Below are positions 12,050 through 54,639 of a stretch of 64,000 nucleotides of DNA, piece by piece (positions within the stretch are counted from its first letter, which is position 1; each line of letters opens with the position of its first letter). The translations under genes were made by a program, and so were the position numbers. The DNA is from an uncultured Candidatus Saccharibacteria bacterium. GTDB lineage: Bacteria > Patescibacteriota > Minisyncoccia > Phycocordibacterales > UBA2100. Location of the stretch: NCBI GenBank assembly GCA_964623775.1, contig CAZUVH010000001.1, forward strand, positions 284,784 to 348,783, written 5' to 3'. The notes beneath the pieces were generated by a model. It had not been told where the DNA came from. It searched no databases and saw only the letters and a list, made by a program, of their open reading frames with translations.

Positions 12050-13224
12050 AAAAAAATTTCGATCACACGCGCATTCTCAATAATCTCAGGCGCTGCACGC
12101 GCTGTACGCTTCCCGAAACGCACGAGACTATTCAGTTCGATGAAGAGGGTGTGTGCAACATTTGTCACAATGCTACGTACAAGAAGGAGAAGGTGGACTG
12201 GAAGCATCGTCGGAATGAACTCGAGAAATTGGTTGAGCAACACCGAGGTAAAGGCGATTATGACTGCCTCGTCCCTTTCAGTGGTGGCAAGGATTCTACA
12301 TTCACACTCTGGTATATCGTGCGGGAGCTCGGATTGAAGCCGCTTGTCGCCAGCTTCGATCACGGTTTCTATAGGCCTGGCACACTCGAGAACAATGAGC
12401 GGACGATGCGCAAACTCGGTGTTGATTTCATAAAATTTCGCACCGATTGGCGCATAGTGCGCAAACTCATGCTCGAGTCACTTCGACGAAAGGGTGATTT
12501 TGATTGGCACGCTCATGTGGGCACTTTCGTATTTCCCTTACAGGTGGCCGTAAAGTACCAGATCCCCCTTATTTTCAAGGGAGAGCCGACCTCGGAATAT
12601 ACGGCGTATTCTTCTTACGAGGAGATTGAAGAACAGGATGTGAAGAAACACCACCAGATCAATGATCTAGGTATCGCCGCAGAAGATATGGCGGGGTTCT
12701 TGAAAAAAGACGGCGTTACGCTTCGAGATCTAAAGGCGTACATCTACCCTGGGGCACGCGAAGTGCGGGCGCTCGGAGTACGTCAGGTGCCTCTCGGCTC
12801 GTTCATTCCATGGGATGTGCAATCAAATTACGAGATTATTCATCGCGAACTTGACTGGCAAGGGGCGCGGGTTGAAGGCGTGCCGCCGCAATATCCTTAC
12901 GAGAAGGTCGAATACCAGCTGCAAGGACAGCGCGACTACATCAAATTCATCAAGCGCGGATACGCCCGCACGACGCACCTCACGAGCATCGATATCCGCA
13001 ATGGTCGCATGACCCGCGAAGAAGCGGTGAAGCTCATAGAAAAGTACGAGGGTAAGCGGCCGCAGAGTCTGCCGTATCTCCTAAAAATACTTGGGATCGA
13101 CGAGAAGGAATGGCGGGAGATCGCCGTGACGCAAGCCATCCCTCCGTATGTGCACGATTTCTCAAAAGAACAGGATGACGAAGTGCTTCCGGATATGGCG
13201 CAGTGGGAGCAAAATCCGGACTAA
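12046..13224 (+). CDS. N-acetyl sugar amidotransferase (WbuX/PseA-like, PP-loop ATPase; TIGR03573-type)
   Basis: A Cys-rich N-terminus (CTRCTLPETHE…GVCNICHN) is followed by the PP-loop FSGGKDST. It is paired with HisH/HisF homologs. Confidence 0.8.
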   Translation: MKKNFDHTRILNNLRRCTRCTLPETHETIQFDEEGVCNICHNATYKKEKVDWKHRRNELEKLVEQHRGKGDYDCLVPFSGGKDSTFTLWYIVRELGLKPLVASFDHGFYRPGTLENNERTMRKLGVDFIKFRTDWRIVRKLMLESLRRKGDFDWHAHVGTFVFPLQVAVKYQIPLIFKGEPTSEYTAYSSYEEIEEQDVKKHHQINDLGIAAEDMAGFLKKDGVTLRDLKAYIYPGAREVRALGVRQVPLGSFIPWDVQSNYEIIHRELDWQGARVEGVPPQYPYEKVEYQLQGQRDYIKFIKRGYARTTHLTSIDIRNGRMTREEAVKLIEKYEGKRPQSLPYLLKILGIDEKEWREIAVTQAIPPYVHDFSKEQDDEVLPDMAQWEQNPD

Positions 13225-13254
13225 ATATGCCCCAACACACGAAATGACCTTGTT

Positions 13255-13524
13255 ATGTTCTACGTATACATATTGAAAAGCCGCAAAGATGAAAAATTGT
13301 ACATTGGATACACCAGTGATTTGAAGCGGCGTGTTTCCGAACATAACGAAGGTCAGAACATCTCCACAAAACCCAGACGACCGCTCGATTTGCTATATTA
13401 CGAGGCATACATGTCTCAGGCAGATGCAAAAAAGCGCGAATTTAATCTGAAGAATTCTGCCGGTGCCAAAACTGCACTTAAACGTCGATTACCAGCAAGC
13501 CTGAGACTAGGTCATTTCGTGTGA
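13255..13524 (+). CDS. GIY-YIG nuclease family small protein
   Basis: The sequence MFYVYILKSRKDEKLYIGYTSDLKRRVSEHNEG is a canonical GIY-YIG motif. The 89-aa ORF is wedged between the amidotransferase and the HisF-like gene. Its stop overlaps the next start region. Confidence 0.8.
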   Translation: MFYVYILKSRKDEKLYIGYTSDLKRRVSEHNEGQNISTKPRRPLDLLYYEAYMSQADAKKREFNLKNSAGAKTALKRRLPASLRLGHFV

Positions 13525-13529
13525 GGGGT

Positions 13530-14300
13530 ATGCTCAAAGTGCGCGTCATTCCCGTGCTACTTCTCAAAGACGAGCGCCTGGTCAAGCCGATTAAGTTCGG
13601 CGAAGGTGGCGAGCGCGATGTCGGATGGCCCGTTACCACTGCCCGTATCTACAACTCCCAGGATGCTGACGAGCTCATTTTTCTTGATGTCGAGGCATCT
13701 ATGCACGGCCGAGAATTTCTCGCGTCGACATTGCGAGAGATCGCCTCGGATTGCTTCGTGCCAATTACCGCAGGTGGCGGTATTCGATCCTTGAAGGCGA
13801 TTCAGGACGTGCTTTCGCTTGGGGCGGACAAGGTATCAATAAATGCCTATGCCGTCGAGAACCCCGCTTTCATTACGGAAGCTTCAGAGCGTTTCGGCGC
13901 GCAATGTATCGTGGTCTCAATTGACGTACGAAAAAAAGTGGATGGTTCTTGCGAGGTTTTCACGCATCGCGGCACTGTCCCGACAGGTCTCGAGCCCGTC
14001 GAGTGGGCAAAGCGTGTCGCTGAGCTCGGTGCAGGGGAGATATTATTAACGTCGATCGATCGAGAGGGCACTCTATCGGGGTACGATCTTGAGCTTACTC
14101 GCCTCGTATCGGAATCGGTGCGCATCCCTGTCATAGCGCACGGTGGTGCCGGGACCAGACAGCATTTTGTCGATGCTGTGCAGCAGGCAGGGGTTTCAGC
14201 TGTAGCCGGGGCGTCCATTTTCCACTTCTCGGATTCGAATCTTTCACAGGTAAAGTCGTTTATGTATAATGCCGGCCTTCCTGTACGGCCCGTTGTATGA
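13530..14300 (+). CDS. HisF-like cyclase subunit homolog (WbuZ type)
   Basis: The sequence is MLKVRVIPVLLLKDERLVK…DELIFLDV…ITAGGGIRS…SIDREGTLSGYDLEL…IAHGGAG. ATG 13530 is preferred over GTG 13521. Confidence 0.85.
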   Translation: MLKVRVIPVLLLKDERLVKPIKFGEGGERDVGWPVTTARIYNSQDADELIFLDVEASMHGREFLASTLREIASDCFVPITAGGGIRSLKAIQDVLSLGADKVSINAYAVENPAFITEASERFGAQCIVVSIDVRKKVDGSCEVFTHRGTVPTGLEPVEWAKRVAELGAGEILLTSIDREGTLSGYDLELTRLVSESVRIPVIAHGGAGTRQHFVDAVQQAGVSAVAGASIFHFSDSNLSQVKSFMYNAGLPVRPVV

Positions 14301-14848
14301 CAAAAAAGATTCCTGCAAAAATACTTAGAGGCGAAAAGTGTTCGATTCGTCCTATCGCTTTGTCTGATGTCACCTCAAAGTATGTGCGGTGGCTGAACGA
14401 CAAAGAGGTCAATCAGTATCTTGAAAGCCGATTTTCTCGCGCGACGCTTCCTGGAGTGCGTGCGTACATCAAAAAGGCGATCAAGGATTCGGACACGTAC
14501 TTATTTGCGATTATCGATTCAAAAACAGGTGAACATATAGGCAACATCAAACTTGGCCCAGTCAATCTGCACCACCAATGCGCAGAGATCGGTTTTTTCA
14601 TCGGTGAGAAAAGCTTCTGGGGGAAGGGCTATGCGAGTGAGGCGATCCGACTTATTGAGCAATTTGCCTTTAACGATTTGAAGCTGCATAAACTTACCGC
14701 TGGTGCATATGCCAACAATATCGGGTCAGTGAAACTTCTTGAGAAATGTGGATTTAAAAAGGAGGGTGTCATGAAAGACAACTGTTTCTTTGAGGGCGGA
14801 TTTGTCGATGGTATTCGATTCGGTAAACTTAGTGGACGTAAGATATGA
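14297..14848 (+). CDS. GNAT family N-acetyltransferase (RimJ/RimL-like)
   Basis: The GNAT core is IDSKTGEHIGNIKLGPV…GFFIGEKSFWGKGYASEAIRLIEQFAFNDLKLHKL. Confidence 0.75.
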   Translation: MTKKIPAKILRGEKCSIRPIALSDVTSKYVRWLNDKEVNQYLESRFSRATLPGVRAYIKKAIKDSDTYLFAIIDSKTGEHIGNIKLGPVNLHHQCAEIGFFIGEKSFWGKGYASEAIRLIEQFAFNDLKLHKLTAGAYANNIGSVKLLEKCGFKKEGVMKDNCFFEGGFVDGIRFGKLSGRKI

Positions 14849-16272
14849 AAATAGCGCTATTGTGGACTACACCGGATGAAAAAATAAAAGTGGTACTTGA
14901 CGCGTTCAAAGATGCGGGTCATGAAGTAGTCTACTGGGTTGCTTTCGATGAAAACAAACATCTCATCCCAAATGGCGCAATATTTCATAATCATTTTGAT
15001 GCACTCTCTGCACTTCCTGCAGACAGTTTCAAGAATACAAAGTTCGACCCGCCTTCGGCGGGGTTGATTAAAAAAATGTATCGCACTGAGTCCCTCACGC
15101 TCTCCATGATGAATAAGCATTACAAAGATGCGCCAGTTGACGAGCGACGGCATGTGTACTACACAATGCTTTCGTATTGGAATCGCGTTCTCGACGAGAC
15201 CAAACCCGACGTGGTTATCTTTGGGATCATCCCGCACACGATTTACAATTTTGTTCTTCACGAACTCGCGCTCGAAAAGGGAATCAAGACCGTAAGTTTT
15301 GAGGATATCTGGGTAATTCACAGGACTCTCGTATTTCGTAATTTTTGGAAGGGCAGTGAGGAGTTGCAGGAGGTAATAAAAAGAACGGCAAATAAGCCTA
15401 TTTCTGAAAAAGATTTGAGCGAAGAAATGCGCGAGTATTGGGGCAGCCTGGTCGGTAAAACGCCATATGTCGAGCAGCCGTTCATTGCATTACAGCGCAG
15501 GATGGGCGCTGGCTTGGGCTTATTAGCGCATCGCCTTAAAGTCGCTTTGAGAACTCTTGCTAACGGCACTTTTTTTAAATTTGTGTGGGGTTTTGTTTTG
15601 CGAGTCGGGAAACCAAATCTCATTAGGGAATATGCGCACCATATTACAGAAGTTGATTGGGATACTCCTTTTGTATATTTTCCGCTGCACTATCAGCCGG
15701 AGCGCACGACAATGCCGCAAGGAGACATGTATCACGACCAGTTGCTCGTCATTGAAACTCTCTCCGCTTCGCTGCCGGATGGATGGAAAATCTATGTGAA
15801 AGAGCATCCGATGCAATGGTTGATCAGCAACAAGGAACGATATTCTTCATCGCGTTATCGCGGGTATTACGAGAGAATTGCGGCGATACCTAATGTGCTG
15901 CTCGCACCACTTTCTACAGATTCTTTTACACTCATCGAACGCTCAAAAACTGTTGCGGCAATCACCGGAACTGCTGGCTGGGAGGCACTCTCCAAAGGCA
16001 AGTGCACACTCCTTTTTGGTATGCCATGGTATCGCGATTGTCCGGGCGTGTATCGTATCGACTCAGTAGAGTCGTGCAAAAAAGCTCTCGGGGCCATCAA
16101 GGGTGGCGCTCAAGCCGCAAAAGGAGATCTGTTGCGATTTTTGAAGGCATACGATGAGGTTAGTGTACGTGCCTACATCGAACCACCTCTCGAAGATAAG
16201 CCCCTCATCGATGCTGACGAAAACATCCGGATTCTGGCGAAGTACGCGTGCGATTTTCTTAAGAAACTCTGA
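14845..16272 (+). CDS. KpsS/KpsC-like capsule-polysaccharide-synthesis family protein (Capsule_synth/GT107-like), putative CMP-nonulosonate transferase
   Basis: Motifs align to E. coli KpsS: FVYFPLHYQPERT (cf. LAVLQVYNDSQ), IYVKEHPMQ (cf. VIKHHPMD) and VAAITGTAGWEAL (cf. VVTINSTAGISAL). The start uses an ATGA overlap. Confidence 0.6.
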   Translation: MKIALLWTTPDEKIKVVLDAFKDAGHEVVYWVAFDENKHLIPNGAIFHNHFDALSALPADSFKNTKFDPPSAGLIKKMYRTESLTLSMMNKHYKDAPVDERRHVYYTMLSYWNRVLDETKPDVVIFGIIPHTIYNFVLHELALEKGIKTVSFEDIWVIHRTLVFRNFWKGSEELQEVIKRTANKPISEKDLSEEMREYWGSLVGKTPYVEQPFIALQRRMGAGLGLLAHRLKVALRTLANGTFFKFVWGFVLRVGKPNLIREYAHHITEVDWDTPFVYFPLHYQPERTTMPQGDMYHDQLLVIETLSASLPDGWKIYVKEHPMQWLISNKERYSSSRYRGYYERIAAIPNVLLAPLSTDSFTLIERSKTVAAITGTAGWEALSKGKCTLLFGMPWYRDCPGVYRIDSVESCKKALGAIKGGAQAAKGDLLRFLKAYDEVSVRAYIEPPLEDKPLIDADENIRILAKYACDFLKKL

Positions 16273-16292: not shown

Positions 16293-17438
16293 ATGATCCT
16301 TTACGAATTCGAGGGAAAGGGAATATTAGAAAAAGCGGGGGTCAGTGTACCTCGGTCGCAGCTTCTTACTTCGTCCGATGAGCGAATCACACTACTATTC
16401 CCGGCCGTTCTAAAGGCGCAGGTACTCTCGGGGAAAAGAGCTGTTGCGGGGGGGATTGTGATCGTCGCCAACGCAGCTGACGCGAAGAAATCTCTTGCAG
16501 AAATGTTTGGCAAGACAATTAATAATGAGAAAGTCGAAAAGATTCTTGTCGAGGAGAGGGTGGATATCGATAAGGAATTCTACGTTTCAATTTCCTACGA
16601 CACTGACACAAGGTCGCCGATACTTTCGATATCAGAATCCGGCGGGACGGGAATCGAGGAAAGGGGTGTTACCGTTGCCCCTATTGATATTCTCGAGAGG
16701 AGTGTCAAATCCGACATCATTGACGGTAAGGTACTAGAGGCTCTTATCGAGACCTTTTTTTCGTCGGACTGCACACTTCTTGAAGTCAATCCGCTCGTGC
16801 GCACCAAAAGTGGTGCTTGGGTTGCGCTTGATGCGAAAATTAAACTTGATGACGAAGCAAAAGCTCGTCATAAGGATTGGACCTATCCACTGAGATTTCC
16901 CTCGGGGAGGACACCGACTCCGCGTGAGATCGATGCAAAAAAAATTGACGATGGCGATTATCGCGGTACAGCAGGGTCCGCGTATTTTGATTTAGATGGC
17001 GACATTGCCATCTTGTCGTCGGGGGGTGGAGTATCACTGACGGCCATGGACGCTCTCATTGCTGTAGGAGGTAAGCCTGCCAACTTTACGGAGTACTCCG
17101 GGAATCCGCCCAAGGAAAAAGTAGTGAAGCTTACGAAAATCGTGCTCTCAAAACCGAATATACGAGGTTTGTGGGTAGTCGGGACTGTCGCTGCAAATTT
17201 CACCGACATTTTCGAGACGCTGTCGGGATTAATCGAAGGATTGCGCGAAGCAGAAAAGGAATTGGGAAAAAAATTCGATTTCCCGATCGTCATCAGACGC
17301 GGCGGACCGCGGGATAAAGAAGCGTTTGAAATGCTACGACAGGTGAAGGATTTCAATCTGATACTTCAGGGGGAAGAAGTTTCCATCGCACAATCAGCGA
17401 GCGTCGTTTACCGTTTAACGAGATCGAGCACGGTATGA
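16293..17438 (+). CDS. succinyl-CoA synthetase beta-subunit-like ATP-grasp protein (ATP-citrate lyase/citryl-CoA synthetase large-subunit type)
   Basis: Conserved motifs are EVNPLV and SGGGVSLTAMD. GGKPANFTEYSG parallels E. coli SucC GGEPANFLDVGG. Confidence 0.8.
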   Translation: MILYEFEGKGILEKAGVSVPRSQLLTSSDERITLLFPAVLKAQVLSGKRAVAGGIVIVANAADAKKSLAEMFGKTINNEKVEKILVEERVDIDKEFYVSISYDTDTRSPILSISESGGTGIEERGVTVAPIDILERSVKSDIIDGKVLEALIETFFSSDCTLLEVNPLVRTKSGAWVALDAKIKLDDEAKARHKDWTYPLRFPSGRTPTPREIDAKKIDDGDYRGTAGSAYFDLDGDIAILSSGGGVSLTAMDALIAVGGKPANFTEYSGNPPKEKVVKLTKIVLSKPNIRGLWVVGTVAANFTDIFETLSGLIEGLREAEKELGKKFDFPIVIRRGGPRDKEAFEMLRQVKDFNLILQGEEVSIAQSASVVYRLTRSSTV

Positions 17439-18328
17439 ATCTAAACAAAGGCGTGAAAATAATTGGACAGGGCATAACGGGCAGCGAGGGTTCGCGTGCA
17501 GCTCAGTGGATGCTCGAGTACGGTACGAATCTTGTAGCTGGCGTCACCCCGGGCAAAGGCGGACAGACGGTATGCGGTACGATTCCTGTGTTCAACACGG
17601 TCAAAGAGGCGCAGGATGCAGTAGGACCGATTGACGCCACGGTGGTGTTTGCACCGCCCATGCGGTCCAAAGACGCTGTTGTTGAGGCGATTGATGCGGG
17701 CGTAAAATTGCTAATCGTGATTGCGGAAAAAATCCCGACCCACGACGGCGCCTACATGTATGCGTACGCAAAAAAGCACGGAGCGCAAATCATAGGTCCC
17801 AATACGACTGGCATTGTCAATCCATCAAAAAAGATAAAAGTGGGATTGATGGGCGGCGGTGAGCCGCTCCGGATGTTCCAGCCCGGAGATGTTGCTATCG
17901 TCTCGAAATCAGGAAGCGTGGCTGCCGAAATCGGCGGGATGCTCAAGCGAGCGGGCAGAGGTGTTTCTTGGGCGGTGGGGATCGGCGGAGACAGGATCAT
18001 TGGCTCAACGTACGTGGATATTTTGACCGAGCTTGAAAAGGATGATGATACAAAAATCTCAGTAATTTTTGGAGAGTTGGGCGGTACCTATGAGGAACAG
18101 CTTGCGGTAGCGATAAAGGACGGCAGGATCAAGAAACCGGTCGTTGCATTTATTGCAGGGGAATTTACCGCCTCACTCCCGAGTGAGGTGCAATTTGGAC
18201 ACGCCGGTGCCATAATCGAAGGCGAGCGCGGGAAACCAGAGCATAAAAGAAAAGTGCTTCGCGACTCTGGAGCCCATGTCGCAAATACGATCGATGAGAT
18301 CGTGTCGCTGGTTAAAAAACACATCTAA
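17435..18328 (+). CDS. succinyl-CoA synthetase alpha-subunit-like CoA-binding protein
   Basis: It is collinear with E. coli SucD (KIIGQGITGSEGS…GVTPGKGGQTV…PVFNTVKEA…GPNTTGIVNP…VGIGGD…). The phospho-histidine motif GHAGAII is present. Confidence 0.85.
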   Translation: MNLNKGVKIIGQGITGSEGSRAAQWMLEYGTNLVAGVTPGKGGQTVCGTIPVFNTVKEAQDAVGPIDATVVFAPPMRSKDAVVEAIDAGVKLLIVIAEKIPTHDGAYMYAYAKKHGAQIIGPNTTGIVNPSKKIKVGLMGGGEPLRMFQPGDVAIVSKSGSVAAEIGGMLKRAGRGVSWAVGIGGDRIIGSTYVDILTELEKDDDTKISVIFGELGGTYEEQLAVAIKDGRIKKPVVAFIAGEFTASLPSEVQFGHAGAIIEGERGKPEHKRKVLRDSGAHVANTIDEIVSLVKKHI

Positions 18329-18330
18329 CC

Positions 18331-19014
18331 ATGGCAATCACCATAACGCACAAAGACCCGAACGATGAGACCTCTCCGGCAATGTTTGGAGCACAGGAGC
18401 TGCTTTCGTACGGGAAAACAGCGCGTTTTTCCGAACTCGTGCTGGAGTCGCTCATGGGAGAAAAACCGAGCGACGAGCAGAAACGCATGTTTGATCTCAT
18501 TCTCAATCTTTGTTTTGATCACGGACCAAATTCTCCATCATCTTCGGCAACGATTGCTGCTGCAAAAGAGGGCAAGAGCATGGGGGAAGCGGTTGCTGCG
18601 GGCATTGCACAGATCAACGATAGTCACGGCGGAGCAGGCGAACCGCTCATGAAGATTTTATATTCGATTCAGAGGAGCGAAACGACCGCTCCCGAAATTG
18701 TCGGACAGTATAAAAAAGATGGAAAAAGAATGCCCGGCTATGGCCACAGGGTGTATAAAGACGCTGATCCCAGGGCGCAAGAGCTACTGGCAGAGGTTCG
18801 AAAAATTTCTCACGGCGGCGACTTTGCTGATTATGCCGAAGAAATCCGAAAAGAGATCGAGAATCAGCTCGGAAAAAAATTGCCCATTAATATTGATGGC
18901 GCAATCGCGGTGACACTTTGCGCGCTCGGGATGCCTCCGGAGAGCGGAAAAGCGGTATTCATTGTCGCACGTTCGGCGGGTCTCTGCGCCCACTTCCTCA
19001 ACAACTCGAAATAG
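18331..19014 (+). CDS. citrate-synthase-like domain protein (citryl-CoA lyase / ATP-citrate-lyase C-terminal domain type)
   Basis: It carries citrate synthase signatures (SHGGAGEPLMKIL and PGYGHRVYKDADPRAQ). Only the 227-aa C-terminal CS-like portion is present. Confidence 0.7.
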   Translation: MAITITHKDPNDETSPAMFGAQELLSYGKTARFSELVLESLMGEKPSDEQKRMFDLILNLCFDHGPNSPSSSATIAAAKEGKSMGEAVAAGIAQINDSHGGAGEPLMKILYSIQRSETTAPEIVGQYKKDGKRMPGYGHRVYKDADPRAQELLAEVRKISHGGDFADYAEEIRKEIENQLGKKLPINIDGAIAVTLCALGMPPESGKAVFIVARSAGLCAHFLNNSK

Positions 19015-19074: not shown

Positions 19075-20394
19075 ATGAGAGGAAAGGGAATAAAAAAGTC
19101 TGAGGCCCTCTGGAAAAAGGCACAAAAAGTCGTTCATGGCAGCGTACCGCTCCTGTCTAAAAAGCCGACGCGTTTTTTGCGCGAAGGGTGGCCCGCGTAT
19201 TTCAAAAAGGCAAAAGGAATTCAGGTAACTGATCTTGATGGCAATACATACCTAGATTTTTCTATGATGGGTGTCGGACCAAATCTTCTCGGGTATGCAG
19301 ATGGTGACGTAAATGCTGCGGTCAAAAAAATAGTTGATGCTGGAAATCAGTCGACACTGAATTCACCGGAAGAAGTGGAGCTTGCTGAAGAATTGCTGCG
19401 CCTGCATCCGTGGGCAGGTCAGGTGCGTTATGCGCGTGCAGGCGGTGAAATGGCCGCTGTTGCTATCCGTGTCGCTCGCGCACACACTGGCAAGGATACA
19501 GTCGCTATTTGCGGATACAGCGGCTGGCACGACTGGTATCTCGCCGCAAATCTAGCGAAAGACAAAAATCTTGATGGCCACCTCATGCCGGGGTTACAGC
19601 CAGTGGGAGTGCCTCGCGGATTGCACGGTACTGTGCTCACCTTCAATTACAACCACATCGAAGAGCTCGAAAAAATAGTTGCAGAGCATGAAATCGGCAC
19701 TATTGCTATGGAACCAATGCGTCATCACGAACCGGAAAATGGGTTTCTTCAAAAAGTGCGTGAAATAGCGGATCGGATCGGTGCTGTACTTATCTTCGAC
19801 GAAATATCTTCCGGTTTTCGACTCGGCTTTCCAGGTGCACATACGCGGCTCGGAGTTACTCCCGATATTGTGGTTTACAGTAAGGCGATGGCCAACGGAT
19901 ATCCAATGGCGGCTTTGGTCGGTAAAACTGAGATCATGAAAGAAGCGGAGGCGTCTTTCATCAGCAGTACATTCCACTCCGAGCGATTGGGACCTGCGGC
20001 TGCACTCGCAACAATTAAGAAAATGCGGAAAGTAAAAATAACCCCATACGTCGATACAATGGGCTGGAAGATCGGAAAGATCTGGCAGAGGGTAGGAAAA
20101 AAATACAATTTACCTATTATCGTAGAGGGCCCGGGTGCGCTTATTAATTTCACCTTCGATCACCCCGACGCCACTGCACTTAAGGCCCTCTATACGCAAG
20201 AAATGCTGAAAGAAGGCTATCTCGCCAGCGCAGTCATATACGTAAGTTATGCTCACAAAGAGGCGCATCTTAAGAGTTTTGAAAAGGCGGTTGACCGCGT
20301 GTTCAAATTCCTTACAGAACGCATAGACCAAAAAGACGTCTCCCGGCATCTGAAAGGGGGTTTGCCGGAATCCGGATTTAAGCGACTCACCTAA
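19075..20394 (+). CDS. class III aminotransferase (glutamate-1-semialdehyde 2,1-aminomutase-like)
   Basis: It matches HemL-family aminotransferase III (…VTDLDGNTYLDFSMMGVGPNLLGYADGDV…YARAGGEMAAVAIRVAR…ICGYSGWHDWYL…IFDEISSGFR…VVYSKAMANGYPMAALVG). Confidence 0.8.
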   Translation: MRGKGIKKSEALWKKAQKVVHGSVPLLSKKPTRFLREGWPAYFKKAKGIQVTDLDGNTYLDFSMMGVGPNLLGYADGDVNAAVKKIVDAGNQSTLNSPEEVELAEELLRLHPWAGQVRYARAGGEMAAVAIRVARAHTGKDTVAICGYSGWHDWYLAANLAKDKNLDGHLMPGLQPVGVPRGLHGTVLTFNYNHIEELEKIVAEHEIGTIAMEPMRHHEPENGFLQKVREIADRIGAVLIFDEISSGFRLGFPGAHTRLGVTPDIVVYSKAMANGYPMAALVGKTEIMKEAEASFISSTFHSERLGPAAALATIKKMRKVKITPYVDTMGWKIGKIWQRVGKKYNLPIIVEGPGALINFTFDHPDATALKALYTQEMLKEGYLASAVIYVSYAHKEAHLKSFEKAVDRVFKFLTERIDQKDVSRHLKGGLPESGFKRLT

Positions 20395-20447: not shown

Positions 20448-21437
20448 ATGAACTCTAAACACCTCGCAGGGAAGAATATTCTCATAACGGGAGGTACCGG
20501 TACCTTTGGTACTGCGATGACTCGGCACCTTTTGGATACGACCGACGTACGGAGGGTGACTATTTTCAGCAGAGATGAATACAAGCAGAGCGTGATGGCG
20601 GGAAATTTTGGTAACGATCCGAGGCTCAATTTTTTTCTTGGTGATATTCGTGACGCTGCTCGATTGCGTCGCGCTTTCAATCAAATCGATATCGTCATAC
20701 ATGCCGCAGCTCTTAAGCAGGTTCCTGCGCTCGAATATAATCCGACCGAAGCGATTGATACAAACATCACAGGAACGAAAAATGTGATCGATGCCGCGCT
20801 TGATCGAGATGTCGAACGCGTACTCGTTGTTTCCAGCGACAAGGCCGTCCAGCCCGTCAATCTCTATGGCGCTACAAAAATGTGCGCGGAACGCTTGGCA
20901 ATCGCGGCGAACGTATACCGGGGTAAAAAAGGAAAGACGCGTATCAGTGCAGTGCGCTATGGCAACGTGATCGGAAGTCGCGGGTCGCTCATAGAGCTTA
21001 TTGAGAAACAGAGGGCAAGCGGCGTACTGCCACTCACCGATCCGCGTATGACGCGTTTCTGGCTCCATATCGGTGACGTGATGGGACTAGTTACGGAAAT
21101 ACTCGCCATTATGGAAGGTGGCGAGATCTTCGTCCCGAAAATGAAAAGTCTTCGCGTCGAAGATGTGATGCGCGTCGTAGCGCCTGAGTGCAAGATCAAG
21201 GTTGTCGGTATGCGACCCGGAGAAAAGTTGCACGAAACCCTCGTTACAGAGCACGAGGCCACCCGAACCAAAGATATTGGAAATCTCTATGTTGTTTTGC
21301 CGGAATTTCATTCATGGAGCTCGAAAGTTTCAATTTTCGCAAATAAGAGGTCGTTTGACGCAAAGGAGATATACGTGAGCAACAATGAAAAGTATCTGCT
21401 TGGACAAAAGGACGTAAAAAAGATACTCAAACTATAG
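20448..21437 (+). CDS. pseB: UDP-N-acetylglucosamine 4,6-dehydratase (inverting), PseB/FlaA1 type
   Basis: It is collinear with H. pylori PseB (ILITGGTGTFG…FSRDEYKQS…RLNFFLGDIRD…HAAALKQVPALEYNP…DKAVQPVNLYGATKMC…VRYGNVIGSRGS…MTRFW…GGEIFVPKM…GMRPGEKLHE). Confidence 0.85.
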   Translation: MNSKHLAGKNILITGGTGTFGTAMTRHLLDTTDVRRVTIFSRDEYKQSVMAGNFGNDPRLNFFLGDIRDAARLRRAFNQIDIVIHAAALKQVPALEYNPTEAIDTNITGTKNVIDAALDRDVERVLVVSSDKAVQPVNLYGATKMCAERLAIAANVYRGKKGKTRISAVRYGNVIGSRGSLIELIEKQRASGVLPLTDPRMTRFWLHIGDVMGLVTEILAIMEGGEIFVPKMKSLRVEDVMRVVAPECKIKVVGMRPGEKLHETLVTEHEATRTKDIGNLYVVLPEFHSWSSKVSIFANKRSFDAKEIYVSNNEKYLLGQKDVKKILKL

Positions 21438-21475: not shown

Positions 21476-22396
21476 ATGGCGGATCGGAAATCAAAGCTCG
21501 TACTCGGTACGGTGCAGCTCGGGATGCCGTACGGCGTCAACAACGCTACGGGCCAGCCGTCGATAGACGAAGCCTTTTCAATACTTGATATGGCTTTTGA
21601 CGCGGGGATCGATACTTTCGATACCGCATATGCATACGGGAACTCCGAAGAGGTGATCGGAAAGTGGCTTGTAAACCGGGGTAAAAGAGGTGTGCGCGTC
21701 ATTACGAAATTCATGCCGACCGCGCTCGCTGAAAATCAGCAGGCCTCGCCAGCCGACATCATCGAAGGACAGCTACATACATCTTTGAAACGACTCGGAG
21801 TAGAAAGCGTGGAGGGTTACTTACTCCCCACGCCTCAGTATCTCTATTCGGCTGGCGTAATCGAAGGTCTGCGACACGTAAAAGCCCGGGGCCTTACGCG
21901 CAATATTGGTGTGTCGATTTACGATGAAGAGGACGCTCTCAAGGTTGTTGATATGGGAATCGATTACATTCAAATTTCTTACAATGCGCTTGATCAACGT
22001 CTTGATAAAACAGATTTCTTCCAAAGGGCAGAGCGCAGGGGTGTTACCGTTTTTGCGCGAGGGCCATTTCTTCAGGGACTCCTCCTGATGGACCCTGAAC
22101 AAATCCCTCAGCATCTACTCTACACAAAGGAATACGTAGTTCGTTTTCGAGCGATCGCCCAGAGTCATGCACTTACTCCACACCAGGCAGCACTCATGTT
22201 CGTCTACCGCCAACCAGGTATTGCCCGGATTGTTTTTGGTGTGGAGAAGTTGACGCAACTCGAGGAGGGTCTTGAGTCGGTCAAAATGGCTGAGAAAAGT
22301 TCAGACGACAATCTCGTAGCGGAAATTAGAAACGCGTTTAAGAACATTGACCGCTCAGTGGTCAATCCAACTTTATGGAACAAAAAAAAGAATTAA
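21476..22396 (+). CDS. aldo/keto reductase
   Basis: AKR motifs are present (LGTVQLGMPYG…DTAYAYGNSEEVIGKWL). The start is at MADRKSK. Confidence 0.8.
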   Translation: MADRKSKLVLGTVQLGMPYGVNNATGQPSIDEAFSILDMAFDAGIDTFDTAYAYGNSEEVIGKWLVNRGKRGVRVITKFMPTALAENQQASPADIIEGQLHTSLKRLGVESVEGYLLPTPQYLYSAGVIEGLRHVKARGLTRNIGVSIYDEEDALKVVDMGIDYIQISYNALDQRLDKTDFFQRAERRGVTVFARGPFLQGLLLMDPEQIPQHLLYTKEYVVRFRAIAQSHALTPHQAALMFVYRQPGIARIVFGVEKLTQLEEGLESVKMAEKSSDDNLVAEIRNAFKNIDRSVVNPTLWNKKKN

Positions 22397-22401
22397 GATC
22401 C

Positions 22402-22956
22402 ATGATCGTCGTGCTCGCCTCTGATATTAAAAAAGAGGGTAATTTGTGGGCGCTCGACGAATGGTCGCTCATAAGAGTAGCGGCGGGCGAATGCTTCTAT
22501 AAGAAAGACCCATCGGACCGCGTGATTGTCGTAGGGGGCGGCAGCCCAGGCGACGACCGACCGACGGTGGCCTCTCTCATGAGCCGATATCTCATTGATA
22601 AGGGAGTACCTGAGTCGGCAATAGTGTCTGAAGATACCTCTCTCTCGACGTTGCAGGAGTTGCTGCAAGTGCAAGGTTTTACTGAGGAGACGGGGCCGAA
22701 AGACATCAGTATAATCTCAAGTGAGTGGCATTTAGAGAGAGTTAGAGCCATACTTGAGTACTTTCCAAAGCTCTCAACGCTGAATAAGTCTGCGCCAAGT
22801 TTTCTTGCCGCCGAAGATATACTTTTGCGCGAAAACCCAGTCGAATGGGAAAACTTTATCGAAAAATCACGTAAAAATCCAGAGACGGAAACTCGGCGAG
22901 CCAATGAAAAAAAGGGCGTCGCTCAAATTATCGACGGGACCTATCACTACCGATAG
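22402..22956 (+). CDS. DUF218 (YdcF/SanA/ElyC-like) domain protein
   Basis: The pattern VIVVGGGS…SLMSRYLIDKGVPESAIVSEDTSLST…ISSEWHLERV is typical of DUF218. Confidence 0.55.
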   Translation: MIVVLASDIKKEGNLWALDEWSLIRVAAGECFYKKDPSDRVIVVGGGSPGDDRPTVASLMSRYLIDKGVPESAIVSEDTSLSTLQELLQVQGFTEETGPKDISIISSEWHLERVRAILEYFPKLSTLNKSAPSFLAAEDILLRENPVEWENFIEKSRKNPETETRRANEKKGVAQIIDGTYHYR

Positions 22957-22985
22957 CGCCAATTTACCGGACTCGCAATCAAGTT

Positions 22986-23744
22986 CTATTTCCGGATACC
23001 TTGTCGCGGATATTCTTTTTCATGCAGCGTATTGAGCGCAGCAACATTGGGATTTTGGTCGAGAAATTCTATTACGTCAGGGACGCTGATGATGCGATTT
23101 GACGTAGAGAATCGATCATAGAGCTTCGAAATAAGTTCATAATCTTCCTGATAGTCGAGGGTGAGCCGATATTGTGGACGCGCAAAAATTCCGCGTGCTT
23201 CTACCATCTTCCCGATGCGGAATTCACCCGTTTTGTTTTCATGAATATAAGGGGTCACATGTTCTCGTTCATAGATCTCCCGAGCCTCGGTACACGCCTT
23301 CTCAAGCGCCTTGAATGAAAAGACCTCACAGTCCAATCCGCGCGGAAACGTACGTTCTCCGGGGAGGGCGTTGCTTACGTAATCACATTTCCCATGTTTG
23401 TACACGTCTATGACCTCGGTGATGATACTGGGGTCGAGAAGGGGGCAGTCGCTAGTGATCCGTACGATAGTTTCAATTTTAAATTGCTGTGCAGCGTCGA
23501 AATAGCGCGAAAGAACGTCGTCTCGCGATCCGCGAAAACAAGAATATCTGTTTCGCGAGCAAAAATCGGCAATCGCGTCATCTTCTGTCTCAGTGGTCGT
23601 CGCTACAATGACGGAGTCGATGCCGCGTACCTGTTTGACGCGTTCAATGACATGCTGGAGTACCGGCTTGCCTGCAAGTGATAAAAGCACTTTGCCTGGA
23701 AGACGCGTGGAACTCATGCGAGCTTGGATGATGACTCCGATCAT
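22986..23744 (-). CDS. acylneuraminate cytidylyltransferase family protein (PseF/SpsF-like CMP-sugar synthetase)
   Basis: The N-terminus is MIGVIIQARMSSTRLPGKVL. Further motifs are …VIVATT…FRGS..DVLSRY and …RITSDCPLLD. The start is at M32 of the listed ORF (23744). Confidence 0.75.
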   Translation of the reverse strand: MIGVIIQARMSSTRLPGKVLLSLAGKPVLQHVIERVKQVRGIDSVIVATTTETEDDAIADFCSRNRYSCFRGSRDDVLSRYFDAAQQFKIETIVRITSDCPLLDPSIITEVIDVYKHGKCDYVSNALPGERTFPRGLDCEVFSFKALEKACTEAREIYEREHVTPYIHENKTGEFRIGKMVEARGIFARPQYRLTLDYQEDYELISKLYDRFSTSNRIISVPDVIEFLDQNPNVAALNTLHEKEYPRQGIRK

Positions 23745-23805
23745 GTTGTCACTATATATCCCGAAGCACCTTAGCAAAAGTACACTTGCAAGAGCGGTTA
23801 AATTA

Positions 23806-23834
23806 TTGACAGCATCTACACTGTCCGCTAACGT
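23806..23834 (+). promoter_or_regulatory. candidate sigma70-like promoter (TTGACA-17-TAACGT) for the downstream cytidylyltransferase gene
   Basis: TTGACA lies at 23806–23811. A 17-nt spacer follows, then TAACGT at 23829–23834, 6 nt before ATG 23841. The -10 element is weak. Confidence 0.3.
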
Positions 23835-23840
23835 CACCCT

Positions 23841-24584
23841 ATGTTGACCGCTATAGTGCAGGCGAGGATGTCCTCGACAAGACTCCCCGGGAAAGTTCTA
23901 AAAGAAGTCCACAATAGGCCACTACTTTCCTACCTCATTGAGCGTTTACAGAGGGTGTCTGAAATAGAGAAGATCGTCGTAGCAACCACTGATAGTGTCG
24001 CTGATGATGCGATCGCCGAGTACTGCAAAAAAAATGGAATTTCTGTTTTCCGTGGATCGGAAAACGATGTACTCGATCGTTACATGAAGGCTGCCATGGA
24101 ATACAGCGCAAATCCCATAGTCCGCATCACAGGTGATTGCCCACTACTTGATGTTGATACGGTGCAAAAGCTGATCGAAGTGTATAAAAAAGGTGGGGTC
24201 GATTATGTGGTGACGGGGCAGTCTTTTACTGAGGGATTTGATTGTGAAATTTTTTCCCAAAAAATGCTCGAACTCTCTCATGTAAATGCCACAAAGTCGT
24301 CCGAGCGCGAACATGCAACACTGTATATGTACACTCATCCCGAGGTGTGTAGAAAATTCATCCTTGAAAATTCAACAGACGACAGTAGTTACCGCGTGAC
24401 AGTCGACGAACCGGAGGACTTTGCTGTGGTGAAAACTATCATTGAAGGTATCTATCCGAATAATTCAGAATTCACCGCAGGCGACATTAAAAATTTTTTA
24501 GACTCCCACCCTGAGATCAGAGACCTTAATAAGGGCATTGTTCGGAATGAAGGTCTCCTTAAATCGCTAGCAGATGAGAAGTAA
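23841..24584 (+). CDS. acylneuraminate cytidylyltransferase family protein (PseF/SpsF-like), paralog of 22986–23744, divergently transcribed
   Basis: The N-terminus is MLTAIVQARMSSTRLPGKVL. Further motifs are …VVATT…FRGSENDVLDRY and …RITGDCPLLD. Confidence 0.75.
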   Translation: MLTAIVQARMSSTRLPGKVLKEVHNRPLLSYLIERLQRVSEIEKIVVATTDSVADDAIAEYCKKNGISVFRGSENDVLDRYMKAAMEYSANPIVRITGDCPLLDVDTVQKLIEVYKKGGVDYVVTGQSFTEGFDCEIFSQKMLELSHVNATKSSEREHATLYMYTHPEVCRKFILENSTDDSSYRVTVDEPEDFAVVKTIIEGIYPNNSEFTAGDIKNFLDSHPEIRDLNKGIVRNEGLLKSLADEK

Positions 24585-28164: not shown

Positions 28165-28204
28165 CTGGCTTTGAATATCGTCCAGACTGGACTATATTCC
28201 TTAT

Positions 28205-31770: not shown

Positions 31771-31819
31771 GCGCTTAAATTGGCATTCACGTGTTATTTC
31801 TGTAAGATGGTGAGCAACT

Positions 31820-32473: not shown

Positions 32474-32474
32474 C

Positions 32475-33647: not shown

Positions 33648-34112
33648 ATGGACCAACCCCTTACGTTGCGACGAGTTACGAAAGACGATGCGAAACTTCT
33701 TTATGAGTGGCGTAACGACGAGGAGACCCGGAAACAGTCTCAAAGTATCACACCTGTTGAGTGGGATGAGCATGCGCACTGGATCGAAAACTCACTAAAA
33801 AATCCTGATCGAATTCTTGTCATTGCCGAACGCGGGGGCACGCCCGTTGGCACATGCCGGGCTGATGTGCGAGCCGACGGTTTTACGGAGATATCATACA
33901 CAATTGCTCCGCAGGAGAGAGGCAGGGGACTGAGTAAGCCAATGGTCCAACAGTTCGTAAAAGAATATTTAGAGGGGCGGCGCTTGGCCGCACACATAAA
34001 AAAGGGACACAAGCAGTCAGAGTCGGTTGTAATTGCTCTCGGGATGAAGCCTTTTTTGGAGATACCATCAAAAGACCAAAATGACACCAGGCTGATCGTC
34101 GAGTGGCGATGA
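33648..34112 (+). CDS. small GNAT acetyltransferase, PseH-like (UDP-4-amino-sugar N-acetyltransferase candidate)
   Basis: The 154-aa sequence is LRRVTKDDAKLLYEWRNDEETRKQS…ILVIAERGGTPVGTCR. It lies between PseA-like and NeuB-family genes. Its size and pattern resemble PseH. Confidence 0.55.
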   Translation: MDQPLTLRRVTKDDAKLLYEWRNDEETRKQSQSITPVEWDEHAHWIENSLKNPDRILVIAERGGTPVGTCRADVRADGFTEISYTIAPQERGRGLSKPMVQQFVKEYLEGRRLAAHIKKGHKQSESVVIALGMKPFLEIPSKDQNDTRLIVEWR

Positions 34113-34140
34113 AACCTCGAAGCGTGTACTATTCTGCCAT

Positions 34141-35181
34141 ATGCAGATAGGTAAGCGGAAGATTGGTAAGGGGCAACCTGTTTTCGTTATTGCCGAGATA
34201 TCGGGCAACCACAATCAGGACATTAATCGCGCCTACGCGATTATTGATGCCGCTGCTGAAGCGGGTGCAGATGCCGTAAAACTTCAAACCTATACGCCGG
34301 ATACCATTACTATCGATTCAGACCAGGAGTATTTTGTAGTTAGGTACAAGAATCCAGATTGGAAGGGCAAAACGTTGTTTCAGTTGTATGGAGAAGCATA
34401 TACACCTTGGGATTGGCAGCCTAAATTAAAGGAATACGCTGAAAAAAAGGGCCTCATTTGTTTCTCATCGCCATTTGATACCACATCCGTTGATTTTTTG
34501 GAGAAAATGCACGTTCCGGCGTATAAAGTCGCCTCTCCCGAGGTTGTTGATGTGCCACTTCTCGAGAGAATAGGTAAGACAAAAAAACCCGTCATTATGT
34601 CGCGCGGGATGGCGAAGCCCGACGAATTACGTTTTGCTATCAAGACCCTAAAAGGGAGCGGTACTAAAGAGGTGGCGATTCTACACTGCGTGAGCGCATA
34701 TCCCGCAATACCTGAGGAGATGAATCTTGCGACCATTCCAGATATCTCAAAACGTTTTAATGTGGTCGCGGGCCTTTCTGATCATACGCTCGGGATCGAG
34801 GTGCCTGTGGCCGCCGTTGCATTAGGGGCATTGATAATCGAGAAACATCTTACGATGAAACGATTTGATGGAGGTCCTGATGCATCCTTCTCTCTTGAGC
34901 CATCCGAATTCAAAGCGATGGTTTCGGCGATTCGAATTACTGAAAAGTCTGTCGGTAAGCCGATGTATACGTTGCTCGCAGAAGAGAATATCCTCGGTAG
35001 AAAATCTTTATTTATTGTGAAAGATGTAAAAAAGGGAGATTTGTTTACTCCGGAGAACGTTAGATCGATTCGCCCCGGCCATGGACTTGCGCCAAAGTAT
35101 TACAAAAAAGTAATAGGTAAGCGTGCAAAGATGGATGCAAAGAGGGGCACACCACTTTCTCGGGGCCACGTGAGCATATAA
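34141..35181 (+). CDS. pseI: NeuB-family nonulosonic acid synthase (pseudaminic acid synthase candidate) with C-terminal SAF domain
   Basis: The sequence is PVFVIAEISGNHNQDINRAYAIIDAAAEAGADAVKLQTY…GLSDHTLGIEVPVAAVALGA. The C-terminal SAF domain is LFIVKDVKKGDLFTPENVRSIRPG. The assignment as pseI, as opposed to neuB or legI, rests on the co-located pseB/pseC. Confidence 0.8.
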   Translation: MQIGKRKIGKGQPVFVIAEISGNHNQDINRAYAIIDAAAEAGADAVKLQTYTPDTITIDSDQEYFVVRYKNPDWKGKTLFQLYGEAYTPWDWQPKLKEYAEKKGLICFSSPFDTTSVDFLEKMHVPAYKVASPEVVDVPLLERIGKTKKPVIMSRGMAKPDELRFAIKTLKGSGTKEVAILHCVSAYPAIPEEMNLATIPDISKRFNVVAGLSDHTLGIEVPVAAVALGALIIEKHLTMKRFDGGPDASFSLEPSEFKAMVSAIRITEKSVGKPMYTLLAEENILGRKSLFIVKDVKKGDLFTPENVRSIRPGHGLAPKYYKKVIGKRAKMDAKRGTPLSRGHVSI

Positions 35182-54500: not shown

Positions 54501-54639
54501 AGAATTTTTTCCCCGGACAATCTCGTCATTTGCACTTCTCTCGGTGCAGTTGAAATGATATTTTAAGAGATCAAAAAGAGATAAAGAAAAGATAAAGTGA
54601 TTGTTTGCACAGCGGCGGGCACGTATGTATAGTGCCGCC

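Follow-up and report, generated by a model that had tools for sequence, protein, structure and literature searches.

A split ATP-citrate-lyase-like gene trio in Patescibacteria and its candidate role in acetyl-CoA supply for amino-sugar and nonulosonic-acid synthesis

Three translationally coupled genes were found in a 64-kb stretch of DNA from an uncultured Candidatus Saccharibacteria bacterium, a member of the ultra-small CPR/Patescibacteria (the whole stretch analysed, here called the window). As judged from sequence, they are best explained as a minimal, fully split ATP-citrate-lyase (ACL) system of the citryl-CoA synthetase/citryl-CoA lyase (CCS/CCL) type. Such a system would make acetyl-CoA, together with oxaloacetate, from citrate for the N-acetylation of surface sugars; this reading is given a probability of roughly 0.6, and is regarded as the most likely one because the trio adjoins amino-sugar or sialic-acid-like genes in many relatives. 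The analysis shows homology, conserved motifs and fold, the operon structure and recurring gene neighbourhoods. We infer from homology and context the citrate-cleaving direction, the substrate, the assembly of a complex, co-transcription and the part that the trio plays in metabolism. Most of the abundant CPR/Patescibacteria have not been cultured, and little is understood of how they manage carbon and cofactors.

The three genes lie exactly where an earlier reading made from the sequence only had placed them, follow each other directly and are coupled, as claimed there:

16293..17438, plus strand: CCS-beta-like subunit, 381 aa, with ATP-grasp and ACL/CCS-type citrate-binding domain (Pfam, PDB, motifs)
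17435..18328, plus strand: CCS-alpha-like subunit, 297 aa, with CoA-binding Rossmann domain and phospho-histidine loop GHAGAII (Pfam, PDB)
18331..19014, plus strand: citryl-CoA-lyase-like protein, 227 aa, with the large-domain fold of citrate synthase (CS) but not the CS N-terminal part (Pfam, PDB, AF2)

With a total of about 905 aa, the trio is compact, and its lyase is separately encoded. The stop codon of gene 1 and the start codon of gene 2 overlap as ATGA (17435-17438), and gene 3 starts 2 nt past the stop codon of gene 2 (TAAccATG). On the outer sides, 20 nt separate the trio from the KpsS-like gene upstream and 60 nt from the aminotransferase gene downstream. A promoter/terminator scan found no promoter-like sites inside the trio and one weak terminator-like hairpin in gene 1 (16662-16682); sites of both kinds were no commoner than in shuffled sequence, which in fact yielded more hits, and the scan was uninformative. 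The motifs named in the sequence-only reading (GHAGAII, GYGHRVYKDADPRA and HGGAGE) are all present in the trio proteins, and its assignment of the genes to the three modules of CCS plus CCL, or of ACL, was borne out by the domains, the best PDB relatives, the motifs and the lyase fold.

Pfam scores of the trio proteins were far above chance. In the gene 1 protein, ATP-grasp_2 (PF08442, 1.2e-28) was combined with Citrate_bind (PF16114, 4.1e-21), that is, an ATP-grasp with an ACL-type citrate-binding domain, as in a CCS large subunit. Its top PDB match was the large subunit of the Hydrogenobacter thermophilus CCS (6hxq_B, 4.9e-55), followed by AclB (6hxj_A, 4.2e-41) and the beta subunit of succinyl-CoA synthetase (SCS; 1.3e-37). 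The motifs GGGVS, ANFTD and IRRGGP of this protein are common to ACL and CCS. In the form GGGxS/ANFTD/RRGGP they were kept in every CPR CCS-beta sequence that was inspected, and they are the same in Chlorobium AclB; by human ACLY Gly309, Asn346, Thr348 and Arg379, we take them to be citrate-binding residues. The gene 2 protein contains the domains CoA_binding, Ligase_CoA and Succ_CoA_lig (PF02629, PF00549, PF13607), and thereby both the CoA-binding domain and the phospho-histidine loop of a CCS small subunit. It matched SCS-alpha (2yv1, 2.5e-69) and the small subunit of CCS (6hxq_A, 2.4e-62) in the PDB.

It is barely credible that the trio represents a normal succinyl-CoA synthetase (SucCD) with a degenerate CS fragment behind it. 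The gene 2 protein matches SCS-alpha slightly better than CCS-alpha, and SucC and SucD are the top NCBIfam names, but both scores are well under the cutoffs (SucC, 193 vs 370; sucCoAalpha, 289.8 vs 353.2). A SucC equivalog with a succinate site was not found in gene 1, whose product has Citrate_bind and ANFTD/RRGGP and not the SCS motif. The product of the third gene is a complete CCL, folded with high confidence and lacking none of the catalytic residues, and it is co-conserved in about 60 loci. The SCS reading was rejected, being largely refuted by the Citrate_bind domain, the motifs and the sub-cutoff scores. All three trio proteins scored below the curated NCBIfam cutoffs, and no CCS-specific model was matched.

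The gene 3 protein matched Citrate_synt (PF00285, 1.9e-35) in the C-terminal part only (positions 146-346). Its best NCBIfam families were citryl-CoA lyases, all below the cutoff (148.4 vs 212), and its best PDB sequence match was a CCL (6hxp_A, 1.6e-37). The AF2 model had a pLDDT of 94.2; the best fold match was again 6hxp (TMq 0.88, rmsd 2.3 A). The CCL modules of ACLs came next, and full citrate synthases ranked below these. The residues H99, H139, R148, D189 and R214 were invariant in 112 homologues and align with CS His274, His320, Arg329, Asp375 and Arg401, and H64, the equivalent of His238, was conserved in at least 90%. The protein thus is a separate lyase which combines the CS large-domain fold with the His/His/Asp (plus Arg) needed for catalysis, and the loss of catalytic His/Asp residues on which the sequence-only reading would have foundered has not taken place. 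Compared to the H. thermophilus CCL, about 40 aa are missing at the C-terminus (227 vs 268 aa), and the protein ends 13 residues past the Arg401 equivalent. An equivalent of CS Arg421', which presumably sits in the missing segment, is for this reason probably absent, and its loss could alter substrate binding by the lyase. The short C-terminus is family-wide and not particular to the glycan-linked clade.

In the mechanism proposed from homology, the ATP-grasp subunit would bind ATP and citrate, the SucD-like subunit would carry the phospho-histidine (GHAGA) and bind CoA, and both together would make (3S)-citryl-CoA by way of citryl-phosphate. Citryl-CoA would then be split by the CCL-like protein in a retro-Claisen reaction, with the His/His/Asp triad of CS, into acetyl-CoA and oxaloacetate. 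The operon is probably co-transcribed with the amino-sugar pathway genes, and sugar N-acetylation would draw its acetyl donor from the trio, with scavenged citrate as the source.

A different use of the same module had also been considered in the sequence-only reading, namely an unusual acyl-CoA or a sugar-acid as substrate. Citryl-, malyl- or citramalyl-CoA would then serve in an exotic N-acylation of nonulosonic acids (NulO), or the enzyme would act on a sugar-acid. This is quite improbable, since glycan-linked and non-linked copies do not differ in their citrate-binding motifs and catalytic lyase residues, which match those of ACL, and since citryl-CoA would be broken down by a fully competent lyase and would not be left as an acyl donor. 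It is favoured by the consistent location of the window's clade in NulO loci, usually beside a class III aminotransferase, and by the sub-cutoff scores of all three proteins. The missing Arg421' segment of the lyase also speaks for it, but is not specific to the glycan-linked clade. Clade-specific active-site changes hinting at a new substrate were not found in the glycan-linked clade, the catalytic and binding residues being family-wide.

Around the trio, glycan genes make up an island of about 57 kb, and the flanking ORFs matched the earlier placement of the trio between a KpsS-like transferase and an aminotransferase. The relevant genes are:

14297..14848, plus strand: GNAT N-acetyltransferase, 183 aa, candidate acetyl-CoA consumer (Pfam Acetyltransf_3, 1.1e-27)
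14845..16272, plus strand: KpsS-like (Capsule_synth) putative ulosonic-acid transferase, directly upstream of the trio (PF05159, 2.8e-7)
19075..20394, plus strand: class III (glutamate-1-semialdehyde-aminomutase-like) aminotransferase, directly downstream of the trio (PF00202)
20448..21437, plus strand: PseB-like UDP-GlcNAc 4,6-dehydratase, first step of pseudaminic-acid type (TIGR03589 PseB; PF02719)
22375..24584, strand not assigned: DUF218 protein and two CMP-sugar (CTP_transf_3) cytidylyltransferases, NulO activation (Pfam)
25770-28164: aspartate-aminotransferase-like and ATP-grasp ligase genes
33648..35181, plus strand: small GNAT (PseH-like, weak) and NeuB-family nonulosonic acid synthase (Acetyltransf_3; NeuB and SAF, 6.7e-88)

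The island is best explained as a pathway for nonulosonic acids of the pseudaminic/legionaminic type with two GNATs. The first GNAT has weak similarity to PseH (47.6 bits vs a cutoff of 93.1), and the PseB-like protein scored just below its cutoff (TIGR03589, 398.8 vs 407.75 bits). For the aminotransferase, the best NCBIfam and PDB matches were glutamate-1-semialdehyde aminomutases, together with sugar C-6' aminotransferases. Both products of the trio might be used in the window, acetyl-CoA by the GNATs and oxaloacetate via the genes at 25770-28164. No TCA-cycle genes were detected among the scanned ORFs of the window, neither an import system for citrate close to the trio nor any other citrate source was identified, and a tRNA scan of the window found no tRNA genes.

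Many of these neighbours recur beside the trio elsewhere. The same three-gene order was found in about 60 sampled Patescibacteria loci, of which the nearest homologues belong to Candidatus Kaiserbacteria (65-85% for the trio, 80-83% for two neighbour genes). In the Kaiserbacteria loci L004/L005, too, the gene immediately upstream of the trio is of the Capsule_synth type, and another such gene is present on the P0009 contig. A class III aminotransferase adjoins or clusters with the trio on the P0009 contig and in L051, L052, L047 and L040. Homologues of the first GNAT occur in the trio-containing NulO clusters L047 and L036, those of DUF218 and the CMP-transferases flank the trio in L030, L040 and L047, and those of the second GNAT and NeuB adjoin it in L030, L036, L040, L046 and L047. 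In the latter five loci, a NulO core of CMP-transferase, NeuB, DUF218 and GNAT wraps the trio. Within the window's clade (CCL identity of at least 60%), all sampled loci had a NulO/glycan context (window, L004/L053, L051, L052, L054, P0009 contig). In the trio tree, this clade and that of L030/L036/L046/L047 were never grouped in 200 bootstraps, which places the NulO linkage in separate branches. Trio-linked NulO cores with NeuB, CMP-transferase, PseB/PseC-like proteins and GNAT thus occur in at least two of them. Other amino-sugar contexts are the order GlmS-trio-GNAT-HAD-YvcK in L071, L078 and L085, and Mur ligases with YvcK on the flanks in L061, L048 and L038. Tried as a GlcN-6-P N-acetyltransferase, the small GNAT by the trio in the GlmS loci gave only weak and non-specific GNAT matches (GNA1 about 2e-4 among many), and it is left without a name here.

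Neighbours were counted as raw frequencies in 56 non-redundant trio loci. Amino-sugar genes were neighbours in about 20 of them. Within two positions of the trio, no gene was more frequent than GNAT, which was found there in 10 loci, across distant relatives. The recurrence of GNAT, NulO, GlmS/YvcK and Mur genes in relatives lends indirect support to the earlier suggestion that the trio supplies acetyl-CoA to neighbouring GNATs. The loci without glycan genes, about two thirds of all, have lineage-specific housekeeping neighbours (TrpRS, FtsH, NUDIX, CPSase, Fic, sortase, sigma-70, primase), so that the glycan linkage is facultative and the trio, instead of the glycan-locus module first assumed, is a widely conserved operon of Patescibacteria.

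These unrelated neighbours in about 36 of the 56 loci also fit a general housekeeping enzyme of Patescibacteria which cleaves citrate or balances acetyl-CoA and oxaloacetate and has no functional tie to glycans. The place of the trio would then result from growth of the island around an ancestral site in gene-dense genomes. The order Wzy_C-TPR then SecA, common to the window, L030 and L046, suggests such growth of a large island around an older, smaller locus, and some of the adjacency of trio and sugar genes may have arisen by chance in small, gene-dense genomes. This explanation is nevertheless held to be unlikely: GNAT, NeuB, GlmS, YvcK and Mur genes adjoin the trio in at least three differently organised contexts on separate branches of the trio tree, and the gaps are often only about 10-20 nt (NeuB-trio in L030, GlmS-trio in L078), which chance alone can hardly be credited with. 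In the sequence-only reading, a sole housekeeping ACL located in the island by chance would have spoken against a glycan role. The trio may well be the only ACL-type enzyme of the organism, but the central-metabolism neighbours expected in relatives are absent; no TCA-cycle genes were found in the flanks of about 60 related trio loci.

To our knowledge, reduced Patescibacteria/CPR as a group have no TCA cycle and no fatty-acid synthesis. Sugar N-acetyltransferases would therefore be the main users of acetyl-CoA, which would place the trio with amino-sugar pathways. A broader version of the preferred reading is that the main job of this three-polypeptide ACL is to provide acetyl-CoA, derived from citrate of host or environmental origin, for amino-sugar N-acetylation, both for UDP-GlcNAc/peptidoglycan precursors and for nonulosonic-acid glycans; this is put forward tentatively, with the odds somewhat against it. 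The need for a dedicated acetyl-CoA supply is not obvious, as pyruvate:ferredoxin oxidoreductase gives acetyl-CoA in some CPR (PMC9166423).

The chemistry of ACL and CCS/CCL is in principle reversible, and fermenters such as CPR would gain from substrate-level phosphorylation if the trio ran as an ATP-yielding citrate synthase (acetyl-CoA + oxaloacetate + ADP + Pi -> citrate + ATP + CoA). The ACL of Desulfobacter postgatei reportedly runs in this direction, and the lack of a visible citrate import system near the trio would agree with it. Reverse operation would however use oxaloacetate stoichiometrically in organisms without a TCA cycle, and it leaves the recurrent GNAT (acetyl-CoA consumer), hexosamine and NulO neighbours unexplained. 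It is considered very improbable.

The presence of this kind of enzyme in CPR had been noted before. According to a preprint (bioRxiv 10.1101/2022.10.25.513756), CPR and DPANN sequences that carry SCS or CS annotations fall in CCS/CCL clades, and in a 2025 study (PMC12577380), aclAB was enriched in Saccharimonadia MAGs. Probably the trio belongs to the same gene family as these. The parts seen of both sources contain no gene-neighbourhood analysis and no link to glycans or hexosamines, and a literature search for CCS/CCL or ACL with nonulosonic/pseudaminic acid or Patescibacteria glycans found nothing relevant. In view of these sources, the earlier remark that no description was known for either reading in glycan loci has to be qualified; only the coupling to glycan and hexosamine genes appears to be undescribed.

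If the CPR enzymes supply acetyl-CoA for envelopes and glycans and are not relics of carbon fixation, pipelines that take these genes as signs of a reductive TCA cycle or 'aclAB' would need correcting, and citrate would be a metabolite that CPR symbionts may draw from their hosts. A compact, separately encoded ACL would also be of use for structural and evolutionary work on the origin of ACL and citrate synthase. The findings also point to sialic-acid-like glycosylation as a trait that several CPR lineages have conserved.

Among known systems, SucCD has the two-subunit architecture of ATP-grasp and CoA-binding proteins and the phospho-histidine mechanism in common with the trio, and the alpha subunit of the trio is SCS-like and SCS-sized. 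The trio differs in the ACL-type citrate-binding domain of the beta subunit and in the CCL gene that always follows. AclAB (Chlorobium limicola, 6hxj) and ACLY have the same overall chemistry and modules, and the citrate-binding motifs of AclB are identical to those of the trio. The lyase module of ACL is fused to the alpha subunit, whereas in the trio the two are parted by a stop codon and a new ATG between 18328 and 18331, and the lyase is a separate ORF in related loci as well; sequence similarity to ACL is also lower than that to CCS/CCL. In eukaryotes, cytosolic ACLY supplies acetyl-CoA for biosynthetic acetylation. The role proposed here resembles that of ACLY, and by analogy the trio would be its prokaryotic counterpart, tied to glycan synthesis by operon structure. 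CcsAB and Ccl of H. thermophilus and the Aquificae (6hxq, 6hxp) are likewise three separate polypeptides with the same domain set; by sequence they are the closest match to both the beta subunit and the lyase of the trio, by fold to the lyase, and the phospho-histidine loop and CS-type catalytic residues are found in the trio too. The trio proteins are shorter than those of H. thermophilus (381 vs 429, 297 vs 353 and 227 vs 268 aa), the lyases are only about 33% identical, and the beta subunit has the ACL motif ANFTD instead of the Hydrogenobacter ANNTR. H. thermophilus is an organism with a reductive TCA cycle, whereas the trio belongs to non-autotrophic, reduced Patescibacteria and, unlike the H. 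thermophilus genes, has amino-sugar and glycan genes as neighbours.

The operon under study, hereafter the trio, comprises three open reading frames, which were found where a sequence-only reading had placed them, together with the motifs named there (GHAGAII, GYGHRVYKDADPRA and HGGAGE):

16293-17438, citryl-CoA synthetase (CCS) beta-like protein, 381 aa
17435-18328, CCS alpha-like protein, 297 aa
18331-19014, citryl-CoA lyase (CCL)-like protein, 227 aa

The start of gene 2 lies within the stop codon of gene 1 (ATGA overlap), and gene 3 starts two bases past the stop of gene 2. The gaps flanking the trio are 20 nt on the upstream and 60 nt on the downstream side. A scan for promoter- and terminator-like sites, the frequency of which was not above that in shuffled sequence, detected no promoter-like sites inside the trio and a single weak terminator-like hairpin within gene 1 (16662-16682).

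Domains were assigned with Pfam. The CCS beta-like protein contains ATP-grasp_2 and the citrate-binding domain of ATP-citrate lyase (ACL; PF16114). Its top PDB match was the large subunit of Hydrogenobacter thermophilus CCS (6hxq_B, 4.9e-55), followed by Chlorobium AclB (4.2e-41) and the beta subunit of succinyl-CoA synthetase (SCS; 1.3e-37). Its motifs were aligned with those of CPR homologues and of the CCS and AclB fragments from the PDB match. GGGVS, ANFTD and IRRGGP are of the same type as in AclB, and we take them to represent the citrate-contacting Gly309, Asn346/Thr348 and Arg379 of human ACLY. The SucD-like CCS alpha-like protein has CoA-binding and ligase-CoA domains with the phospho-histidine loop, and matched the SCS alpha subunit (2.5e-69) and the CCS small subunit (2.4e-62) about equally well.

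The CCL-like protein covers the citrate-synthase (CS) profile over its C-terminal two thirds only, and its top sequence match was the CCL of H. thermophilus (6hxp, 1.6e-37). The AlphaFold2 model, calculated with 112 homologues as input, was confident (pLDDT 94.2) and resembled 6hxp most closely (TMq 0.88, rmsd 2.3 A), followed by the CCL modules of ACLs and then by complete citrate or methylcitrate synthases. H99, H139, R148, D189 and R214 align with His274, His320, Arg329, Asp375 and Arg401 of CS and do not vary among the 112 sequences; H64, the equivalent of His238, is kept in at least 90% of them. Since only 13 residues follow the Arg401 equivalent, the segment bearing Arg421' of CS is probably absent, and about 40 C-terminal residues of Hydrogenobacter CCL are missing from the whole family of 112 homologues. 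The N-terminal MAxTITH (residues 1-7, 18331-18351) is near-invariant in this family and may contribute to an active site or help the protein dock onto the synthetase.

None of the three proteins reached the NCBI curated cutoffs, and they are thus divergent family members. Judged by domains and residues, the trio groups with the CCS/CCL branch within the ACL/SCS/CS superfamily. The sequence-only reading had therefore identified the modules correctly, as domains, PDB matches, CCL fold and residues agree. An identity as SucCD was rejected as extremely improbable. The same reading had also considered an unusual acyl-CoA or a sugar-acid as substrate; the residues lend this no support, and it is considered very unlikely.

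Exact matches to the trio proteins were found on metagenome contigs only. Patescibacteria (CPR) account for the overwhelming majority of homologues of the CCL-like protein, with Kaiserbacteria (65%), Daviesbacteria, Microgenomates, Woesebacteria, Woykebacteria and Giovannonibacteria as named sources and further homologues from MAGs labelled Saccharibacteria. In all of the approximately 60 loci with enough sequence, the CCS beta-like and alpha-like genes precede the CCL-like gene in constant order. The trio is for this reason regarded as a conserved CPR operon and not as an accessory of one island, and the notion of a locus-specific invention was not borne out. In a Daviesbacteria genome (L007/L015, 8472-9107), a 211-aa DUF2268 ORF lies between the CCS beta-like and alpha-like genes.

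By homology, CCS beta would bind ATP and citrate, the histidine of CCS alpha would be phosphorylated and hand the phosphate to citrate, and CoA would attack the citryl-phosphate. The resulting citryl-CoA would be cleaved by CCL to acetyl-CoA and oxaloacetate. Where TCA cycle and lipid synthesis are absent, acetyl-CoA may serve chiefly as donor for sugar N-acetylation, which would explain the repeated joining of the operon to hexosamine, peptidoglycan-precursor and nonulosonic-acid (NulO) genes and their GNATs.

Flanking regions of 56 non-redundant trio loci were compared by tblastn with the window proteins and clustering of all neighbouring ORFs, followed by Pfam checks. Four kinds of context were distinguished:

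(a) the clade of the window itself, with a CCL identity of 60% or more: window, Kaiserbacteria L004/L053, L051, L052, L054 and the P0009 contig
(b) a separate clade with the trio wedged in the NulO core: L030, L036, L040, L046, L047
(c) a more distant group (about 40% identity): L071, L078, L085; L061, L048, L038; L067, L070, L079, L096; L076
(d) the remaining loci (about 36), mostly of Daviesbacteria/Microgenomates type, with lineage-specific housekeeping neighbours (NUDIX, TrpRS, FtsH, CPSase, Fic, sortase, sigma factor, primase)

All loci of context (a) lie within NulO/glycan loci; a class III aminotransferase gene is adjacent or nearby in four and a Capsule_synth gene is present in three. 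For context (b), the order in Giovannonibacteria L047 is GNAT-PseB-PseC-oxidoreductase-class III aminotransferase-(GT)-CMP-transferase-trio-DUF218-NeuB-GNAT, and in L030 about 10 nt separate the end of NeuB from the trio. NJ analysis of concatenated sequences gave the window's clade 100% bootstrap support and grouped it with clade (b) in 0 of 200 replicates; NulO linkage is therefore not confined to one branch of the trio tree. Within context (c), L071 (5240-12738), L078 and L085/L086 share the arrangement GlmS-trio-GNAT-HAD-YvcK (CofD family). In L061, L048 and L038 the trio has Mur ligases and YvcK as flanking genes, a small GNAT adjoins it in L067, L070, L079 and L096, and L076 combines it with a GNAT, a PseB-like gene and glycosyltransferases. 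YvcK/GlmR regulates GlmS in Bacillus subtilis, and the arrangements with GlmS or Mur ligases may represent a UDP-GlcNAc supply operon.

A housekeeping enzyme placed beside glycan genes by chance is plausible for many loci. This explanation is hard to reconcile with repeated tight linkage in independent arrangements, and is considered rather unlikely. Among genes no more than two positions away from the trio, a GNAT was the most frequent (10/56 loci), and TCA-cycle genes adjoined the trio in none of the loci compared. Operation in reverse, as ATP-yielding citrate synthesis, fits these neighbours poorly and has a very low probability. Supply of acetyl-CoA for the GNATs, as proposed in the sequence-only reading, appears the best supported of its proposals. 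PFOR is an alternative source of acetyl-CoA in some CPR (PMC9166423), which tempers the view of the trio as sole supply.

The glycan island that holds the trio in the window measures about 57 kb, ends at SecA and GatB and contains:

heptose-type SIS and PfkB genes, and an ABC exporter
11405-14300 and 30419-33632, two complete HisH-like/HisF-like/WbuX acetamidino sets
two GNATs (14297-14848 and 33648-34112), and a KpsS-like gene (14845-16272, 475 aa)
a PseB-like gene (398.8 bits vs a cutoff of 407.75), and DegT/PseC-like genes
NeuB, two CMP-transferases, and DUF218 (22375-22956)
methyltransferases, glycosyltransferases, and a Wzy_C-TPR protein

The Wzy_C protein (O-antigen-ligase/O-oligosaccharyltransferase-like), which carries TPR repeats, precedes SecA (52290-54500 and 58713-61292). 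In a bacterium presumed to have no outer membrane, this Wzy_C protein may function as an enzyme of protein O-glycosylation. In L030 and L046, as in the window, Wzy_C-TPR and SecA occur in this order on the downstream side of the NulO/trio genes, which suggests that the window's island is an expansion of an older compact locus. Between the glycan island and SecA, 54601-57471 encodes a 956-aa protein whose alpha/beta-hydrolase domain is LCAT/PGAP1-like (lipase or acyltransferase).

The WbuX proteins of both acetamidino sets scored above cutoff as N-acetyl sugar amidotransferase (TIGR03573); the pairing points to two steps of acetamidino formation, or to an island put together from two NulO modules. 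An 89-aa GIY-YIG (homing-endonuclease-type) ORF (13255-13524) separates the WbuX-like amidotransferase (12046-13224) from its HisF-like partner (13521-14300), and homologues (38-49% identity) are also present in the flanking regions of L009 and L029. In the NulO clusters of L030, L036, L040 and L047, DUF218 is consistently a neighbour of NeuB and the trio; as no PseG-type (GT28-like) UDP-sugar hydrolase was recognised, it might fill the PseG step. The KpsS-like protein and an unannotated 511-aa protein (36599-38134) are paralogues (about 25% identity), and a 516-aa homologue follows the GNAT in L047 (12970-14520). These three proteins, which have no good family assignment, are candidate NulO transferases. 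At 25770-29209, genes for an ATP-grasp L-amino-acid-ligase-like protein, an aspartate-aminotransferase-like protein (NF041091, 2.3e-122, below cutoff) and a 4-hydroxy-2-oxovalerate aldolase (above cutoff) are consecutive. The aminotransferase could use oxaloacetate released by the lyase to provide aspartate for ligation; in relatives, however, these genes do not accompany the trio as conserved neighbours.

CCS/CCL-type genes in CPR are already noted in the literature. A 2022 preprint (bioRxiv 10.1101/2022.10.25.513756) states that CCS/CCL clades include CPR and DPANN sequences with SCS or CS annotations, and a 2025 paper (PMC12577380) names aclAB among the genes enriched in Saccharimonadia. 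The literature search returned no paper tying such genes to NulO, hexosamine or other glycan loci; new here are the recurrent coupling of the trio to amino-sugar pathways and its minimal architecture. Every protein of the Hydrogenobacter CCS/CCL system is longer than its trio counterpart, and the trio is a shortened, fully split form, with no TCA-cycle gene among the scanned ORFs of the window or in the flanks of about 60 related loci.
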